The position numbers were made by a program, and so were the translations under genes. The notes under the pieces were generated by a model that was not told where the DNA came from, did no database searches, and worked only from the letters and a program-made list of their open reading frames with translations. From an uncultured Chloroflexia bacterium (GTDB taxonomy: Bacteria; Chloroflexota; Limnocylindria; Limnocylindrales; CSP1-4): a DNA stretch of 64,000 bases. The stretch is taken from contig CAVSKR010000006.1 in assembly GCA_963728635.1 (NCBI GenBank), forward strand, positions 43,203 to 107,202, written 5' to 3'. The first letter of the stretch is position 1. Each line of letters begins with the position of its first letter. Below, one piece after another: positions 5,024-64,000 of the stretch.

Positions 5024-6256
5024 ATGACCCGAGATTCGAATCGTCCGCTTCGGGACGCCTGGATCGTCGAGGCCGTCCGCACGCCGATCGGGCGCTACGG
5101 CGGCGCGCTTGCGACCGTCCGACCTGACGATCTCGCCGCGCTCGTCCTGCGCGCGGTGGTCGATCGCGCGGGTGTCGACGCGGCCCTCGTCGAGGACGTC
5201 ATCCTCGGCTGTGCCAACCAGGCCGGCGAGGACAACCGCGATGTCGCCCGCATGGCGCTCCTGCTCGCCGGCTTCCCGGTCGAGGTCGGAGGGCAGACCG
5301 TCAACCGTTTGTGTGGCTCCGGGCTCCAGGCGATCAACTCGGCGGCCCATGCGGTCGCTGTCGGCGACGGCGACGTCTTCATCGGCGGCGGTGTCGAATC
5401 GATGACGCGGGCGCCGTACGTCATGGCCAAGGCCGAAGGCCCGTGGGACCGCGGACCCCGCGAGCTCCAGGACACCACTCTCGGCTGGCGGTTCGTGAAC
5501 CCGGCCCTCTCCGAGAAGCACTACCCGTATTCGATGGGCGAGACCGCCGAGAACGTGGCGGAGCGCTGGAACGTCGGTCGCGAGCGCCAGGACGCGTTCG
5601 CGCTCGAGAGCCAGCAACGCGCAGTCGCGGCGATCGAGGCGGGCCGTTTCGACGACCAGATCGTCCCGGTCGAGGCGACCGGGCGGAAGGGCGAGCTGAC
5701 CGTCGTCTCCCGCGACGAGCATCCCCGTGCCGATACGTCAGCCGAAGCACTCGCCAAGCTGCGCCCGGCGTTCCGCGGCTCGGGTGGCACGGTGACCGCC
5801 GGGAACAGCTCGGGCATCAACGACGGCGCGTCGGCGGTCCTGCTCGTGGAGGCCGAGCGGGCACGCGATCTCGGGCTGAAGCCGCTCGCCCGCGTCGTCT
5901 CGACCGCGGTGGCAGGCGTCGATCCGGCGATCATGGGCGTCGGCCCCGTGCCCGCGACACGCAAGGCGCTCGAGCGCGCCGGTCTCGGTGTCGACGATAT
6001 CGACCTCATCGAGCTCAACGAGGCGTTCGCATCGCAGTCACTCGTGTGCATCGACGAGCTGGGCCTGGACCCGGCGAAGGTCAACGTCAACGGCGGCGCG
6101 ATCGCGCTGGGGCACCCGCTGGGCATGAGCGGCGGCCGGCTGATCACGATGCTGACCCACGAGCTGCGGCGCACGGGCGGGCGTTACGGGCTCGCGACGA
6201 TGTGCATCGGCGTCGGGCAGGGCATCGCGACGATCGTGGAGCGCATCGACTCGTAA
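5024..6256 (+). CDS. paaJ: 3-oxoadipyl-CoA / acetyl-CoA C-acyltransferase (thiolase, PaaJ-like)
   Basis: 410-aa thiolase with catalytic Cys ([11 protein letters not shown]), GHPLGMSG and MCIGVGQG motifs. Confidence 0.85.
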
Positions 6257-32647: not shown

Positions 32648-32723
32648 GGGGGAGTAGCTCAACGGTCAGAGCGGCGGGCTTATATCCCGCTGGTTCCAGG
32701 TTCGAATCCTGGCTCCCCTACCA
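32648..32723 (+). tRNA. tRNA-Ile, anticodon TAT (UAU) by manual folding
   Basis: 76 nt: acceptor GGGGGAG/CTCCCCT (G1-U72), D-arm GCTC-AACGGTCA-GAGC, anticodon arm GCGGG-CTTATAT-CCCGC (U33, A37), T-arm CCAGG-TTCGAAT-CCTGG, discriminator A, encoded CCA. Confidence 0.75.
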
Positions 32724-58464: not shown

Positions 58465-59568
58465 TCAGCGAGACGCCTCGTGCTGGATGTGCCCGAATGG
58501 CCCGGGCACAGGCGTCCAGGCGCTCTCCCAGCTATCCGGCTTGTGCGCCCGCTGGAGGCGGGAGCACAGCTCGGGGTCGCGCTCCAGCAGGTCGACGAAG
58601 AGCCGCGCCAGCTCGGGATCGAATTGCGTGCCAGCGTGTCGATCGATCTCCGCGAGCGCCCAGTCGACCGGCCGGGCGGCCTGGTATGGCCTGCCGTGCG
58701 TGATGGCATCGAACGCATCCGCCAGGCGCACGATCCGGGCTTCGAGCGGGATGGCATCCCCGGCGAGGCGATCGGGGTAGCCCGATCCGTCGAAGTTCTC
58801 GTGATGGGAGCGGGCGATCTGCCGTGCGACCTCGAACCCGGCTCCCTGCGCAAGGATCTCCGAGCCCCACACCGGGTGGAGGCGCATGACCTCCCATTCG
58901 GCGTGGTCGAGCGGGCCGGGCTTGAGCAGGATCCGATCCGGGACGTGGATCTTGCCGATGTCGTGCAGCATCGCCGACCAGCCGATGGCGGCCGCCGTTT
59001 CCGCCGCCAGCCCCGTCGCGAGCGCCAGCTCGGTGGCGATCTCCTGGATGCGAACGACGTGGTCGCCCGTGTCGGTGTCCTTCGCTTCCGCACCTCGGGC
59101 CAGCGCGACCATCCCGTCGCGCTGCAGGTCGACGACCTCGATCGTCGCCGATCGAAGATCCACCAGGTTGCTCCGCACGCGGTCGAACAAGGCACCCGTG
59201 GTCGCACCGGCGATCAACAGCATGGCGCTGCGAAAGGCGGAGACCTCGATGCTCTCGTCGCTGCCGGGCAGTCCGAGTGCCGGCGCGACGGGCCCGAGCA
59301 CGACCCCGACGTACAGCGCGCTCAGGAGGCCACCGCGCAGGCCGAAGATGTATGCGCCCAGGAGGACGGGCAGGTACCCGAGGTGGTTCAGCGGGTTCGG
59401 CGTCCCGCCGGTCGACCGGACCAGGAGCAGAACGAGCAGCCCGGCGAGTCCGATGACGGCCACGCCGAGCAGGCGGATCGCGCGCAGGCGCGAGAGGTCG
59501 CCCGAGGCGAGGTCCGGCAGGCCCAGCGAACGGCCGTTGCGCGCGAGCGTCGAAGTCGGATAGGTCAT
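58465..59568 (-). CDS. membrane-anchored HD-GYP domain c-di-GMP phosphodiesterase
   Basis: N-terminal TM helices; HD motif (LHDIGKIHVPDRILLKPGPL) and GYP motif (HENFDGSGYPD). Confidence 0.85.
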   Translation of the reverse strand: MTYPTSTLARNGRSLGLPDLASGDLSRLRAIRLLGVAVIGLAGLLVLLLVRSTGGTPNPLNHLGYLPVLLGAYIFGLRGGLLSALYVGVVLGPVAPALGLPGSDESIEVSAFRSAMLLIAGATTGALFDRVRSNLVDLRSATIEVVDLQRDGMVALARGAEAKDTDTGDHVVRIQEIATELALATGLAAETAAAIGWSAMLHDIGKIHVPDRILLKPGPLDHAEWEVMRLHPVWGSEILAQGAGFEVARQIARSHHENFDGSGYPDRLAGDAIPLEARIVRLADAFDAITHGRPYQAARPVDWALAEIDRHAGTQFDPELARLFVDLLERDPELCSRLQRAHKPDSWESAWTPVPGPFGHIQHEASR

Positions 59569-59701
59569 GGTCGTCGCACTCCCGGGGAGGGGCAGCGTAT
59601 CCGGGGTGGGGGTCCGGTGGAACGCGGCGATGGTCCTCGCAGACGCGGGTACTTGGGGTCTACCGGCGCGTCCGGGATGCTCACGGCCCTACACTCGGCC
59701 G

Positions 59702-60232
59702 ATGGATGACGTCCCCGCCGAAGCCGTGTTGCGGGCCTTACGCCGCACGCGACAGGTCCGGCGCTTCACGGACGAGCCAGTCGACGACGCGGCGATCCAG
59801 GCGATCCTCGAGGTCGCGCGCTGGACGGGCAGCTCAGAGAACCGTCAGCCGTGGATGTTCATCGTCATCCGGGATGGAGATGTTCGGCGACGGATCGCGG
59901 AGCTCGCGCCGTATGCGCGGCACGTCGCCAAGGCTCCAATCGCGATCGCCATCCTGATGAACGGTGAGCATCCCGACGAGGACACCTACGATGAGGGCCG
60001 GGCGGCCGAGCGGATCCTGATCGCGGCGCATGCGCTCGACCTCGGCGGCGGCATCGGCTGGGCCGACAGCGCTGCCGAACAGGCCGCGGTCGGGGCGTTG
60101 CTGGGTGTCGCGCCGCCGGCCTGGGTTCGGACCGTCGTTGCGATCGGCCACCCGACGGACGAGGCTCGTCGGCCTCGGACGGGCCCCGGGACCGGACGGC
60201 GACCGCTCGCCGAGCTCATTCGCGAGATCTGA
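59702..60232 (+). CDS. nitroreductase family protein
   Basis: Nitroreductase N-terminal signature (RRTRQVRRFTDEPVDDAAIQAILEVARWTGSSENRQPW); ATG at 59702. Confidence 0.75.
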   Translation: MDDVPAEAVLRALRRTRQVRRFTDEPVDDAAIQAILEVARWTGSSENRQPWMFIVIRDGDVRRRIAELAPYARHVAKAPIAIAILMNGEHPDEDTYDEGRAAERILIAAHALDLGGGIGWADSAAEQAAVGALLGVAPPAWVRTVVAIGHPTDEARRPRTGPGTGRRPLAELIREI

Positions 60233-60265
60233 CCGAAGGGCGCGCTCGGGTGAGGCGAGCTCCGG

Positions 60266-61351
60266 TCAGGCACGTCCGCCGGCCGGCCGGAAGACCGTCA
60301 CGAACTCCTCGCCACGGACCACGGTGTACGAGTCGAACTCGACGAGTGAACCGTCGCCGCGCGGCATCCGGAAACGTGACTCCGCGGCACCCGCCTCGGC
60401 GAGGATCTCGAGCATCACGGTGACCTGCTCGGTCGAGCCCGGCGTCACGAACTCCTGCCAGTGATGCCCGACCAGCGGACGCCCGAAGTACGTCTGAGCG
60501 GCCTCGTTGGCCTCGAGGATCAATGCCTGTGCGTCGTAGCGGACCATCGGCAGGTTCGAGGCGCGCCACCAGGTGCCCTCTTCCGGGGCTGCCTCCCTGC
60601 CGTCGCGTCGGGCGACCCATCGGGCGCCGTCGGCGACGACCGTCGCGTGGGGGTACAGGCGGCGAATCCGCAGCTCGAGTCCGCCGGCGGTCGGCTCAGG
60701 CATCCGTCCGAGGGCACGAACTGCGTAGCCGCGGAACGCCGGGTCGGCCTCCGGGATGTATGCGATCGAGGTCGGACCGGCGGCCGGGGTTCCTCCGACG
60801 CTGATCTCGACGTCGTCCGCCAGCCGGAAGACGCCGAAGATGTCAGCACCGTCCTTCTCGGAGTGGAGGTCGATGGCGATCACGTCGCCTGACGTCGGTC
60901 GAAGCAGCACGGTCGCCGTGAGGCCCTTCCCCTCCTCGATGATCCGGAACAGGGCGACCGAGTCCTCGAGCGTGCCCGGCACGATGAAGTCGGTGAAGTG
61001 ATGGGTACCCGGTTCATCGCCATCGATGCCCAGGAGCCCGACGGCCGTCGCATTGGCTTCGGTGATCCAGCCGGACGCCGAGACCGTCACTCGGGGGAGA
61101 TCGGGGTCATCCCACCAGGAACCCGCGAGCGACGATCCCCAGGCGCCGTCCCGGTAGACGTACCACGCCGGCGCTTCGCCCGAGATCGTGCGCTCGCGGA
61201 CGACGACGCGCGGGAACATGCGCCTCAGGCGGGTTTCGAGGTCCGCTGGGCTTGCCACTCGCCTCAGCCTTTGGACATGGTCGCGAAAGGCTGCGTCGGA
61301 GCTCGGGATCGTTATCAGAGCGGGCTTGATCGGCCCCCGGGTCATGACCAT
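60266..61351 (-). CDS. hypothetical protein with two PAS-like folds and no output domain
   Basis: Two repeats resembling PAS cores (WITEANATAVGLLGIDGDEPGTHHFTDFIVPG and ILEANEAAQTYFGRPLVGHHWQEFVTPG); start ATG 61351 or 61366. Confidence 0.45.
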   Translation of the reverse strand: MVMTRGPIKPALITIPSSDAAFRDHVQRLRRVASPADLETRLRRMFPRVVVRERTISGEAPAWYVYRDGAWGSSLAGSWWDDPDLPRVTVSASGWITEANATAVGLLGIDGDEPGTHHFTDFIVPGTLEDSVALFRIIEEGKGLTATVLLRPTSGDVIAIDLHSEKDGADIFGVFRLADDVEISVGGTPAAGPTSIAYIPEADPAFRGYAVRALGRMPEPTAGGLELRIRRLYPHATVVADGARWVARRDGREAAPEEGTWWRASNLPMVRYDAQALILEANEAAQTYFGRPLVGHHWQEFVTPGSTEQVTVMLEILAEAGAAESRFRMPRGDGSLVEFDSYTVVRGEEFVTVFRPAGGRA

Positions 61352-61455
61352 GCGCGCACACCACATGATTCATCGGTGTCCCGCCCGCGGTCATTGCAAA
61401 ACCATCAAGACCCGGGCCGCCGGGCTTACGTCCGTCCTCAACCGTTGGCCCGGCG

Positions 61456-61698
61456 TCACCGGTCGACGCTGAGGTGGGCCTCCTCGGCGTGCACTTCGAT
61501 CTGATCCGCTCGGACGCCCACCTCCGCGGCGATCGAGCGTCGTGCAGCTTCGGCGATGGCCGCCGGCCCATCGCCGTCGAACTCGAGCCACGGCATCTCG
61601 ACGACCTGCCGGCGCTCCAGGGCGACCCGATAGCGCGGGGTTCGTCCCTGCTTCACCAGGTGGCGGCCGGCCCGACGTGCTTCCCTCCGTCGTCCCAT
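61456..61698 (-). CDS. hypothetical small protein
   Basis: 80-aa ORF MGRRREARRAG...; the longer ORF-track call 61456..61875 runs through the tRNA fragment. Confidence 0.3.
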   Translation of the reverse strand: MGRRREARRAGRHLVKQGRTPRYRVALERRQVVEMPWLEFDGDGPAAIAEAARRSIAAEVGVRADQIEVHAEEAHLSVDR

Positions 61699-61774
61699 GG
61701 CGCAGAGTCTGGCGGTGCCCCCATGTCGTCCGTGGCGGAGCGCGCCTCGACCAGGTTGCAGGCGCATCGACCGT

Positions 61775-61825
61775 TGGCCCGCCCGGAGGGATTCGAACCC
61801 CCGACCTACTGATCCGAAGTCAGTC
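61775..61825 (-). repeat. 51-bp 3'-half fragment of tRNA-Arg(TCG), perfect direct repeat of 63742..63792
   Basis: tggcccgcccggagggattcgaacccccgacctactgatccgaagtcagtc identical at both loci, with divergence immediately after. Confidence 0.8.
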
Positions 61826-61921
61826 AGAGGAACGGGCCACACGTTCAGGGCTTCCGGGCTCGAGGGTGCCCGCAAGGCGCTCGGCGCGGCGCCAAGGAGC
61901 CAGGATTTCCGGGGTATTGAA

Positions 61922-61958
61922 GGACCCTCCGGCCGGGAGGTGACTGGCCGGAGGGTCC
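61922..61958 (+). repeat. perfect 13-bp inverted repeat (stem-loop) GGACCCTCCGGCC-n11-GGCCGGAGGGTCC
   Basis: Read directly from sequence; lies ~100 bp inside the repeat-bounded segment; no U-tract follows. Confidence 0.5.
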
Positions 61959-62400
61959 CACGGCCCCCTACGGGCTTCGACAGTCAAAACGAACCTGGGC
62001 CGGATGCGTTAGGGTCCGCCGCCGACGCGGGTTGGGCGCCCCGGCGGAAGCCCGTGCAGGGGGGTGACACGGAGTACCGAGACGCCCGCGGCTAGCGTAC
62101 GTCGCCGGCCACGATCCGTTCTCACCTGCCGTCGCGATGGATCACGGCGCCACGGTCGGCAGCCGACGCCCGATGCGTACCCGCCAGATGTAATGCCCGC
62201 GATGCGTCGAGAGAGGTGGGAAGCACGGCCTTCGAAGCCACTGGTGGACCAACAATCGACAGAGTGACGGGCGGCATGGGGCTGTTGCCGCCCACTGACG
62301 CGCGGAAGGAGCGATGGCGAGCAGGCGGGATCGGTACGAACGTGGAAATCGGCCGCGTTTGGCCGAGTCTGAAGCGCATGCCCCGAATCCGGGACTGGTG

Positions 62401-62631
62401 ATGCAGGAGGCCCTTCGGCGCCTCGCCGACTGCGAGCGTCGTCTGCGTCGGGAGGCGAATTCCAGCGACCGGTATCGCGAGCTCACCTACGAGGTCCAGG
62501 CGTTACGCGACGAGGTGTTGCGTCTGGCTCGAGAGACCGCTGAGGAGCTGACGGACGCGGACGCTCAGGCCGATGCAGAGGCAAGAGATACGAACGTGAG
62601 ACGGCTGCCGCGTCGGCGCGTCACCGGATAA
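62401..62631 (+). CDS. hypothetical small coiled-coil protein
   Basis: ATG MQEALRRLADCERRLRRE...; an alternative earlier start at 62314; weak support. Confidence 0.25.
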   Translation: MQEALRRLADCERRLRREANSSDRYRELTYEVQALRDEVLRLARETAEELTDADAQADAEARDTNVRRLPRRRVTG

Positions 62632-62851
62632 GCGCGATCCTGGAGGGAGCGGCCTTCAGGTCGTTGGCGGACGACCCGACGGCGAGCTCGACGTCTGGCG
62701 CATCCGGCTCAACTGCGGCATCTGCTAGAGCTTGGTAGCGAACGCCGCTCTTCCTCGATCGTCCGAGCTCGAAGCCATCGCGCCGTCCGCCATGTCGCAC
62801 CCGTACGGTGAGGGCTAATCCGTCCCATGTCCGAGTTGACCGAAGACTTGG

Positions 62852-63127
62852 TCAGACGTGCCTGTGTAGGTCCGCCTCAGGTGTCGCTGGGGCATCGTCG
62901 CCGCGCGGCGGCTGTTGCCAACCCAGCTCCGACACATCGCGCTGCGGGACCGAAAGGTGCACGACTTCGTGCTCGACATTGGCGATGGCCGATGCAGGAA
63001 CGTAAATGTCGCTTGCCAGCCCGGTGGAGGTGAGAACATAGTTTTGTCCAACTTCCCGAACTTCGCCAACGCGGCGTCCGTCGTTCCCGACCACCGTCCA
63101 GCCAGGCTTGAGATCTGCCATTCGCAC
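62852..63127 (-). CDS. PRC-barrel / DUF2171-like small protein
   Basis: 91 aa with DGRRVGEVREVGQNYVLTS...DIYVPASAIANVEHEVVHLSV pattern resembling PRC-barrel stress proteins. Confidence 0.45.
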   Translation of the reverse strand: MRMADLKPGWTVVGNDGRRVGEVREVGQNYVLTSTGLASDIYVPASAIANVEHEVVHLSVPQRDVSELGWQQPPRGDDAPATPEADLHRHV

Positions 63128-63346
63128 TTTGGTCCTTGAGCCTCCTCGGGGCAGAGTCCGACTACCTTAGCCCGCGTCCGCGCGGGTGTACGTGGAAGGA
63201 GATCCATGGGTCGACCCTCACGATGAACCTCGTGGCCTCGCTCCGAGCCTTTCAGGCGCGCCGGGTCGAAATTCGCGGCTACCTTGATCCGGCGCGATAG
63301 AGTAACGCGGACGGGAACGTCACCAGCAACCGAGAGGAGAGGTCGC

Positions 63347-63628
63347 ATGGGTATCATCTCTTGGATCGTGGTCGGCGCGATCGCCGGCTATCTCGCCGGC
63401 CTCCTGGTCAAGGGTGACGAGAGTCTCGGCGTGATCGGTCATATCGTCCTCGGCATCGTCGGGGCGCTCATCGGTGAATTCCTCGCCGGAGTCCTGACGG
63501 GCGGAACGGACTACACCACCGGCATCAACGTCACGACGATCGTCGTCGCGACGATCGGCGCGGTCATCGCAGTGGTCGGCTACAGCGCCATCCGCGGACG
63601 GTCCCGGTCCGGTCGCGGACCGATCTAG
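63347..63628 (+). CDS. GlsB/YeaQ/YmgE family stress-response membrane protein
   Basis: AGGAGAGG RBS; MGIISWIVVGAIAGYLAGLLV... Gly-zipper TM helices typical of this family. Confidence 0.7.
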   Translation: MGIISWIVVGAIAGYLAGLLVKGDESLGVIGHIVLGIVGALIGEFLAGVLTGGTDYTTGINVTTIVVATIGAVIAVVGYSAIRGRSRSGRGPI

Positions 63629-63741
63629 CCGCACGCCACGACCGGAGGCCGCATCCGGCTGAGTGGGGTACGGCCGGGGGTACGACACTGAATCAAATGG
63701 CCCTCCGGAACGCCCGGAGGGCCATTTCGTGCTCAGGATCA

Positions 63742-63818
63742 TGGCCCGCCCGGAGGGATTCGAACCCCCGACCTACTGATCCGAAGTCAGTCGCTCTGAT
63801 CCACTGAGCTACGGGCGG
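63742..63818 (-). tRNA. tRNA-Arg, anticodon TCG (UCG) by manual folding
   Basis: Reverse complement folds with acceptor CCGCCCG/CGGGCGG, D-arm GCTC...GAGC, anticodon arm ACTGA-CTTCGGA-TCAGT, T-arm GGGGG-TTCGAAT-CCCTC, discriminator G, encoded CCA. Confidence 0.85.
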
Positions 63819-63937
63819 ACGCGCGGATGATACCGCGATGCTCGGCGGTGCCGGCCGCGACTCGCTGCGTCGGCGCTCCCCACTCGTGAGGACTAGCATC
63901 AGCGCGAGCCGAGCGCTCAATAGGAGGAACCCATCCG

Positions 63938-64000
63938 ATGACCCGTCAGCGCGTCAGCCTGTTGGTCGTGGCCTGGCTGCTCGTGGCGTGCACGTCCGGC
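63938..64000 (+). CDS. 5' end of a lipoprotein gene (continues beyond window)
   Basis: AGGAGGAA RBS then MTRQRVSLLVVAWLLVACTSG (signal and lipobox). Confidence 0.4.
   Translation, partial: MTRQRVSLLVVAWLLVACTSG

Follow-up and report, generated by a model that had tools for sequence, protein, structure and literature searches.

Introduction

The ends of genomic islands in tRNA genes are marked by a regenerated tDNA and by a displaced fragment of the same gene. Among tyrosine-integrase tRNA islands, the class with an attP centred on the anticodon (Reiter 1989 and Williams 2002, PMC100330, as cited in the Islander paper) is the commoner one, with 2083/3919 islands (PMC4383910). Such elements decay, and cis-mobilizable elements (CIMEs), the decay products of integrative and conjugative elements or integrative and mobilizable elements, are defined as having lost their integration genes while keeping attL and attR (PMC5704250). 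Here, we describe a locus of this general kind in a 64,000-nt stretch of the genome of an uncultured Chloroflexia bacterium (contig CAVSKR010000006.1; the whole stretch is called the window), in which an intact tRNA-Arg(TCG) gene and an exact copy of its 3' part enclose a short segment of DNA. We consider it highly probable that a tyrosine-integrase element once inserted in tRNA-Arg(TCG) left this region (61775-63792) as its fossil.

The locus resembles tRNA-gene islands in its regenerated tRNA gene, in the displaced direct 3' fragment at the far end (51/51 nt, 1967 nt from the intact target gene), and in an identity block spanning the anticodon stem through the 3' end. In relatives, moreover, the integrase gene adjoins the att site, and alternative islands occupy the same hot spot in related genomes. 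In contrast to these islands, the integrase in the window is reduced to eight codons, so that the locus does not pass the Islander integrase filter (PMC4383910), and the arm brought by the element includes a copy of the tRNA gene's own spacer and terminator. With CIMEs, the locus shares the loss of integration genes, the retention of both att cores, a site at a tRNA 3' end and, in a relative (L128; comparison loci and contigs carry L numbers), tandem accretion. Neither integration nor transfer genes remain in the segment, and judging by its sequence the locus fits that part of the CIME definition which asks for lost integration genes and kept att cores. Unlike CIMEs, the parent family of the remnant shows no conjugation genes, and the distal arm appears not to be preserved, which would make mobilization in cis or in trans doubtful. 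The locus is therefore best described as a tRNA-gene island remnant of a well-known kind, an ordinary genomic fossil.

Results

The repeat and its target gene

A repeat search returned a single family made of two direct copies that are 100% identical, which bears out the exact 51-bp duplication of the 3' part of tRNA-Arg(TCG) described in an earlier reading of this DNA made from its letters (the sequence-only reading). The repeat starts 1 base before the anticodon stem and stops exactly at the gene end, with the encoded CCA. When the halves of the repeat were searched for separately, as a 22-mer and a 24-mer with up to 3 mismatches, each had exactly two sites in the window, as against 0/100 dinucleotide shuffles, and no third copy turned up in the window even with as many as 14 mismatches allowed in 49 nt. 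The sequence-only reading had named two findings that would speak against it. One was that the second copy might belong to another full tRNA gene, and this is not the case: ARAGORN makes no call at the distal copy, which scores 27.7 bits with Rfam, below the gathering score of 29.

The tRNA-Arg(TCG) sequence of the window is identical in more than 100 metagenomic copies. Scanning metagenomes with the shared 49-mer yielded 120 loci, nearly all of them full tRNA genes, and the sequences downstream of the gene are so diverse across these loci that they identify tRNA-Arg(TCG) as an integration hot spot. A viral contig collection scanned for the 51-mer gave 0 matches. Separately, we noted that contigs L010, L014, L025, L034, L059, L093 and others stop at the tRNA-Arg core or a few bases from it, as would fit assemblies breaking where a site is repeated or varies between strains.

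The end of an integrase gene beside the tRNA gene

Further evidence that the repeat was left by an integrase comes from the DNA next to the intact gene. Window positions 63639-63739 are 80-88% identical (blastn and multiple alignment; E 1e-17 to 3e-26) to loci in which a 315-381-aa Phage_integrase protein is encoded directly after tRNA-Arg(TCG). In L038, L050, L080 and L097, the contigs closest to the window in their tRNA-downstream sequence, a tyrosine integrase gene (Phage_integrase E 6e-31) directly follows the terminator hairpin and is convergent with the tRNA gene; in L123 and L125, the integrase gene that abuts the tRNA gene is full-length or frameshifted. The left edge of this homology always falls at 63639, 10 nt past the stop codon of a gene for a GlsB-type protein. 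The conserved block is composed of a spacer, a 14-bp hairpin, a pair of CGTACCCC repeats and the end of the integrase reading frame, and this layout, in which the hairpin and the repeat pair lie between convergent integrase and tRNA genes, is the one seen in L038, L123, L125 and L002. The seven residues encoded by the stub are identical to the C-termini of proteins P0002 and P0005 and match the integrase ends of L123 and L126 at 7/7 positions. We identify the stub because the DNA alignment of about 100 nt contains it. Together, the homology and these residues indicate that an integrase gene once lay here and was deleted down to eight codons, i.e., seven plus the stop. The att-site footprint of a tyrosine-recombinase element proposed in the sequence-only reading thus has support from the proximal arm and stub as well as from the repeat.

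The 14-bp hairpin, which is kept in L002, L038, L123 and L125, is probably a two-way terminator serving the tRNA gene and the former integrase gene. Both it and a second, 13-bp hairpin in the segment fold much better than shuffles (z = -4.2 to -5.2). A strict promoter/terminator scan called neither hairpin, the 14-bp one being passed over because it has no long T run.

L002, L038, L123 and L125 have the CGTACCCC pair in the same position, and its motif differs with the integrase variant, reading TACCAAC in L127, TTGACCCC in L126 and TGGACCCC in L128. We infer that these short repeat pairs beside the integrase stop codon are putative arm-type integrase-binding sites. Like the sites of lambda-type integrases, they come as short direct-repeat pairs in both arms, at a fixed distance from the core, and their sequence covaries with the integrase. 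Unlike in lambda-type systems, binding is here predicted from sequence, and no separate arm-binding domain was identified in the full-length integrases of about 370-380 aa, which match Phage_int_SAM_3, Phage_int_M and Phage_integrase. A CGTACCCC pair in L123 (515-534) was considered as a distal arm and rejected, as it is followed by an ORF and not by an att core.

The element-borne arm also copies the native 3' flank of the tRNA gene, i.e., a spacer containing GAGCACGAAA and the terminator hairpin (window 63691-63741), and the same copying is seen at L002 819-870 and 5977-6010 and at L106 241-290 and 1325-1375. Similarity between att flanks consequently runs past the tRNA gene, at lower identity.

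Relatives in successive states of decay

Two uncultured Chloroflexia contigs from metagenome-assembled genomes were retrieved via the PAS protein encoded near the locus, L002 among them. Its nitroreductase/HD-GYP flank is 82-86% identical to the window at the nucleotide level. L002 has an exact 51-nt repeat (51/51) of the 3' part of tRNA-Arg(TCG), at 770-820 and 5926-5976, starting at tRNA position 29 and reaching 2 nt beyond the 3' end, around 5.16 kb of wholly different genes. The tRNA gene and the following ~100 nt are conserved between the two genomes, with divergence beyond, and at the place of the stub L002 has a 47-codon remnant of the integrase C-terminus, 94% identical by tblastn. In L129/L130, a 3.56-kb element with a 48/49 repeat encodes a 206-aa integrase fragment and a major-head-protein fragment, and the nitroreductase gene lies 1 kb past the distal copy. 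In L114, the segment measures 2.15 kb and lacks an integrase, and the distal copy is 46/49. L002, L114 and L129 share flanking genes (nitroreductase, HD-GYP) and hold different cargo between the same two repeats. The second finding named in the sequence-only reading as telling against it, the same gene order without a repeat in related genomes, is not what these relatives show, all three of them keeping two repeats.

Ordered by what is left of the integrase gene, these loci form a clear natural series of element decay to bare att scars, from L129 (206-aa fragment) through L002 (47 codons) and the window (eight codons) to L114 (none). A further integrase-less segment, of 1.08 kb, was noted in L106 (165-1324), where it extends from the tRNA gene to a 48/49 distal copy and contains two small ORFs (75 and 79 aa).

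These comparisons bear on whether the repeat might have arisen with no integrase involved, by local duplication, by RecA-mediated single crossover of a circle with tRNA homology, or as an assembly artefact. An identity of 51 nt suffices for homologous recombination, and many metagenome contigs break at tRNA-Arg, which is an assembly-sensitive site. However, the stub and the conserved arm sites occupy exactly the positions that they have in integrase-bearing relatives, independent genomes have the limits of the repeat at the anticodon stem and at the CCA end (positions 27-77 in the window, 29 to +2 nt in L002), and the same architecture recurs in the independent assemblies L002, L114 and L129/L130. 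We therefore regard an integrase-free origin as highly improbable. The features of the locus are collected in Table 1.

Table 1. Features of the tRNA-Arg(TCG) locus, in window coordinates (asterisk, stop codon)
Feature	Position	Strand	Evidence
Chromosomal flank past the distal core: former tRNA 3' flank, now diverged	61699..61774		
Distal repeat copy, 51 nt (attR core): displaced 3' fragment of the tRNA gene	61775..61825	-	
488-nt stretch adjoining the distal core, no convincing gene; contains the 13-bp hairpin and a degenerate arm-like motif	61826..62313		
13-bp perfect hairpin	61922-61934/61946-61958		
105-aa ORF, doubtful gene	62314..62631	+	GC3 0.705; no Pfam or PHROG match
DUF2171 small protein	62852..63127	-	Pfam E 1.9e-7; GC3 0.67
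GlsB/YeaQ/YmgE-type small membrane protein (Transgly_assoc)	63347..63628	+	Pfam E 4.2e-9; GC3 0.84
Integrase gene stub: last seven codons and stop (RPEAASG*), convergent with the tRNA gene	63639..63662	+	Translation, blastn
Direct pair of CGTACCCC repeats, 12 nt apart; putative arm-type sites for the integrase (P' arm)	63665-63672 and 63677-63684	-	
14-bp perfect hairpin, between tRNA 3' end and integrase stub	63695-63708/63714-63727		Fold -32.2 kcal/mol, z -5.15
tRNA-Arg(TCG), intact, encoded CCA; regenerated integration target	63742..63818	-	ARAGORN; Rfam tRNA 70.2 bits
Proximal repeat copy, 51 nt (attL core): tRNA gene positions 27-77, anticodon stem-loop to CCA	63742..63792	-	

The distal end of the segment

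As for the distal end, the arm of five relatives (L129, L002, L114, L126 and L128) carries three arm-type sites at about 80-105 nt from the core, two of them direct and one inverted. This layout is missing from the window. Its distal arm is only 26-36% identical to those of the relatives and is not recognizable as one of them, versus 43-61% among the relatives themselves, even when elements in tRNA-Pro are compared with elements in tRNA-Arg. The sole arm-like motif left there is a degenerate GGGGTATTG at 61911-61919. On the other side of the core, the native spacer/terminator pattern is still present in the equivalent flank of L129, L002, L114 and L078, as it should be if the distal copy represents the 3' half that the chromosome had originally; in the window, weak traces alone remain. 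A tblastn search of the 64 kb for homologs of the P0001/P0002-family integrase or of its excisionase found none besides the stub.

These results weigh on the idea that the segment is a CIME-like, cis-mobilizable element, excised or co-mobilized by a cognate integrase (and excisionase) supplied from elsewhere. Both 51-nt cores are perfect, the proximal arm retains both CGTACCCC sites intact, and the integrase family is abundant in the clade (3059 homologs at E<=1e-20). Small integrase-less segments bounded by att sites also occur at tRNA-Arg in L106, L114, L043 and L104, as well as in a remnant in L128, and CIMEs are by definition elements that have lost their integration genes and kept attL and attR (PMC5704250). 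On the other hand, the distal arm is unrecognizable apart from a single degenerate motif, the window encodes no family integrase or excisionase, and neither a circular junction nor an empty site was seen. By analogy with lambda-type integrases, arm sites would be required. Since the distal arm is gone and the 64 kb contain neither an integrase nor an excisionase, mobilization by an outside integrase is unlikely, and the sequence suggests that the remnant is most likely immobile. The sequence-only reading had offered either a decayed element or a very small mobilizable cassette; the first is favoured by our results, while the second is weakened by the unrecognizable distal arm.

A broader version of the same idea would make the tRNA-Arg(TCG) locus a cassette-exchange platform for att-bounded segments of 1-5 kb with small host-adaptive genes. 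If so, family integrases supplied from outside would excise, swap or stack segments and thereby keep the cores perfect, in the manner of an integron built on a tRNA gene. We view this as quite improbable, a little more so than mobilization of the one segment.

We also considered and rejected an element lying to the left of the distal copy: that side holds an 80-aa ORF and PAS, nitroreductase and HD-GYP genes, with no integrase and no third att copy. The interval between the distal att and the conserved nitroreductase gene (window 59567-61774) varies when compared with L002 5977-10900, L114 5700-7900 and L129 5569-7138. It holds a PAS gene in the window, genes for an MBL protein, a PAS protein and a GMC oxidoreductase plus a PAS-gene remnant in L002, and a CPBP protease gene in L114. 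This variability suggests older island layers of which no att trace is left.

The enclosed DNA

The repeats enclose 1916 nt (61826-63741) with three ORFs and 488 nt in which there is no convincing gene. As the sequence-only reading had it, the genes are all small (a hypothetical one, a PRC-barrel one and GlsB/YeaQ), with Pfam assigning DUF2171 and Transgly_assoc to two and leaving the 105-aa ORF unmatched; the 13-bp perfect hairpin and the locally reduced GC of that reading are likewise found. The GC content of the segment is 66.1% vs 70.3% for the window, which places it in the lowest 0.5% of same-size windows, and GC3 is 0.67-0.71 in the DUF2171 gene and the 105-aa ORF vs 0.81-0.89 in the flanking genes. 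The enclosed cargo is thus compositionally deviant, which counts in favour of an inserted element.

We then looked in the cargo for traces of element genes, relying on blastn and tblastn after discarding a tblastx comparison with all loci on account of high-GC noise. Pfam finds no integrase domain in the cargo ORFs, so the tyrosine integrase that Islander expects inside an island is missing. PHROG gives just a weak match of unknown function for GlsB, and tblastn with 52 proteins from seven related loci recovers only the 7-residue integrase end. In Rfam (61300-64000, E<=1), there is the tRNA along with sub-threshold chance matches, and no known RNA family appears in the 488-nt stretch.

The 105-aa ORF has no homolog in any related locus compared. 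An exact look-up of the GlsB protein returned no record, and homologs with 78% nucleotide identity to window 63338-63626 are present in other lineages (L039 280-557 and L109 1445-1735). There, the gene is upstream of and divergent from tRNA-Arg(TCG), whereas in the window it is downstream and convergent. DUF2171 has 788 homologs, many 80-99% identical. In L133-L135, it stands in unrelated contexts, with homology confined to window 62851-63213: in L133 it lies between a cyclase gene and tRNA-Pro(TGG), and in L134 and L135 it adjoins an integrase fragment without similarity to the P0001/P0002 integrase family. The interior is either cargo that survived or what is left of a second element, joined on by a deletion.

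The latter possibility amounts to a mosaic of a tandem array, in which a deletion running from the integrase of the first element across a middle att would have fused the proximal arm of that element to the distal part of a second one. It is a refinement of the fossil reading and is not opposed to it. The proximal arm is of the family type and the distal arm is not, several kinds of element use tRNA-Arg (as judged from the many unrelated downstream sequences and the T-loop-type repeats in L104 and L043), tandem remnants occur in relatives (the third att copy of L128), and the cargo genes are unlike any of the family's element genes. Against this stand two results: no second integrase or recognizable gene of another element could be traced in the cargo, and the distal arm of the window matches no other distal arm in the sample. 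We hold the mosaic only as a tentative possibility.

The integrase family and its elements

A by-product of this work is a large uncharacterized integrase family from uncultured soil Chloroflexota, with att cores mapped in tRNA-Arg(TCG) and tRNA-Pro(GGG) and arm sites predicted. Those of the 3059 homologs whose source is named belong to Chloroflexota, and tblastn detects integrase fragments in several further contigs. Intact sister elements with integrases 65-70% identical are found at tRNA-Pro(GGG). The one in L126 is 5.7 kb long with a 46-nt exact repeat, while that in L128 (1-11308) is 9.4 kb long with a 53-nt repeat and carries, besides the integrase gene, an HTH_17/AlpA-like gene and a Phage_capsid gene. 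In L128, a third, degenerate att copy (914-966) bounds a 0.9-kb remnant that has no integrase. More generally, the elements are small (6-9 kb), and the relatives encode HTH_17 excisionase-like and replication-initiator-like proteins, sometimes together with a major head protein or capsid; no conjugation genes were seen in them. Elements of the L128 type could be a phage-satellite-like family in Chloroflexota. L129 9475-9942 was noted alongside L128 in this respect.

Two further observations concern other arrangements at tRNA-Arg(TCG). In L127 (2844-2903), an 8.3-kb integrase-bearing element has a distal att that keeps just 13 nt of tRNA identity beside an intact native-type terminator, and it may be locked in place. 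Repeats of other types are also present, starting at the T loop in L104 (4266-4295) and L043 (904-933), and L064 (158-206) has a copy of the 5' 32 nt of the tRNA gene only. This suggests that additional integrase classes use tRNA-Arg(TCG).

Discussion

Our preferred reading, that of a decayed tyrosine-integrase element, builds on features that were observed directly: the repeat, the intact tRNA gene, the homology of the proximal arm and stub, and relatives at the same site that bear an integrase or are in intermediate decay. The following history would account for them. The element would have brought its own copy of the tRNA gene from the anticodon stem to the CCA, followed by the spacer and terminator, with its integrase gene directly after the terminator and convergent with the tRNA gene. 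A crossover within the anticodon loop or immediately 3' of it would then have rebuilt a working tRNA gene from element DNA (the proximal copy) and displaced the original 3' half about 2 kb downstream (the distal copy). In L114 and L129, only gene positions 30, 33 and 34 are mismatched in the distal copy, from which we infer that strand exchange took place in the anticodon loop or 3' of it, as in the anticodon-centred class. In the order of deletions that we deduce, at least one later deletion or replacement would have removed the integrase gene down to its eight codons, along with the other core genes and the distal arm, and mobility would have been lost. What is left over would be a proximal att with two arm-type repeats and a bare 51-nt distal core, with GlsB and DUF2171 in between.

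Several points weigh against this reading. Taken on its own, the stub is too short to be significant in a protein search (E 1.7-1.8). An empty-site allele, with tRNA position 77 joined straight to the left flank of the window (ACGGTCGATGCGCC), is absent from the 120 metagenome loci. From the closest integrase clade, we recovered no tRNA-Arg element that is complete in having both the integrase and the two repeats; the intact cases are at tRNA-Pro or, in the sequence available, lack the distal end. GlsB and DUF2171 look like host-type small genes that are found elsewhere in other contexts. Finally, the distal core is perfect, yet the sequence on both sides of it is unrecognizable or diverged. 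Simple neutral decay does not explain a perfect core in such surroundings; possible accounts are recency combined with replacement, gene conversion from the tRNA gene, or several rounds of integration and excision.

For annotation, the practical consequence is that 61826-63741 should be flagged as DNA that was rearranged or acquired horizontally, and that tRNA-Arg(TCG) should be treated as a hot spot of integration in this lineage. This is of use for interpreting strain differences and matters little by itself.

Elsewhere in the window, ARAGORN reports a tRNA-Ile gene with anticodon TAT at 32648-32723 (+). In most bacteria, AUA is decoded by a modified tRNA with a CAT anticodon, and a TAT anticodon would be uncommon.

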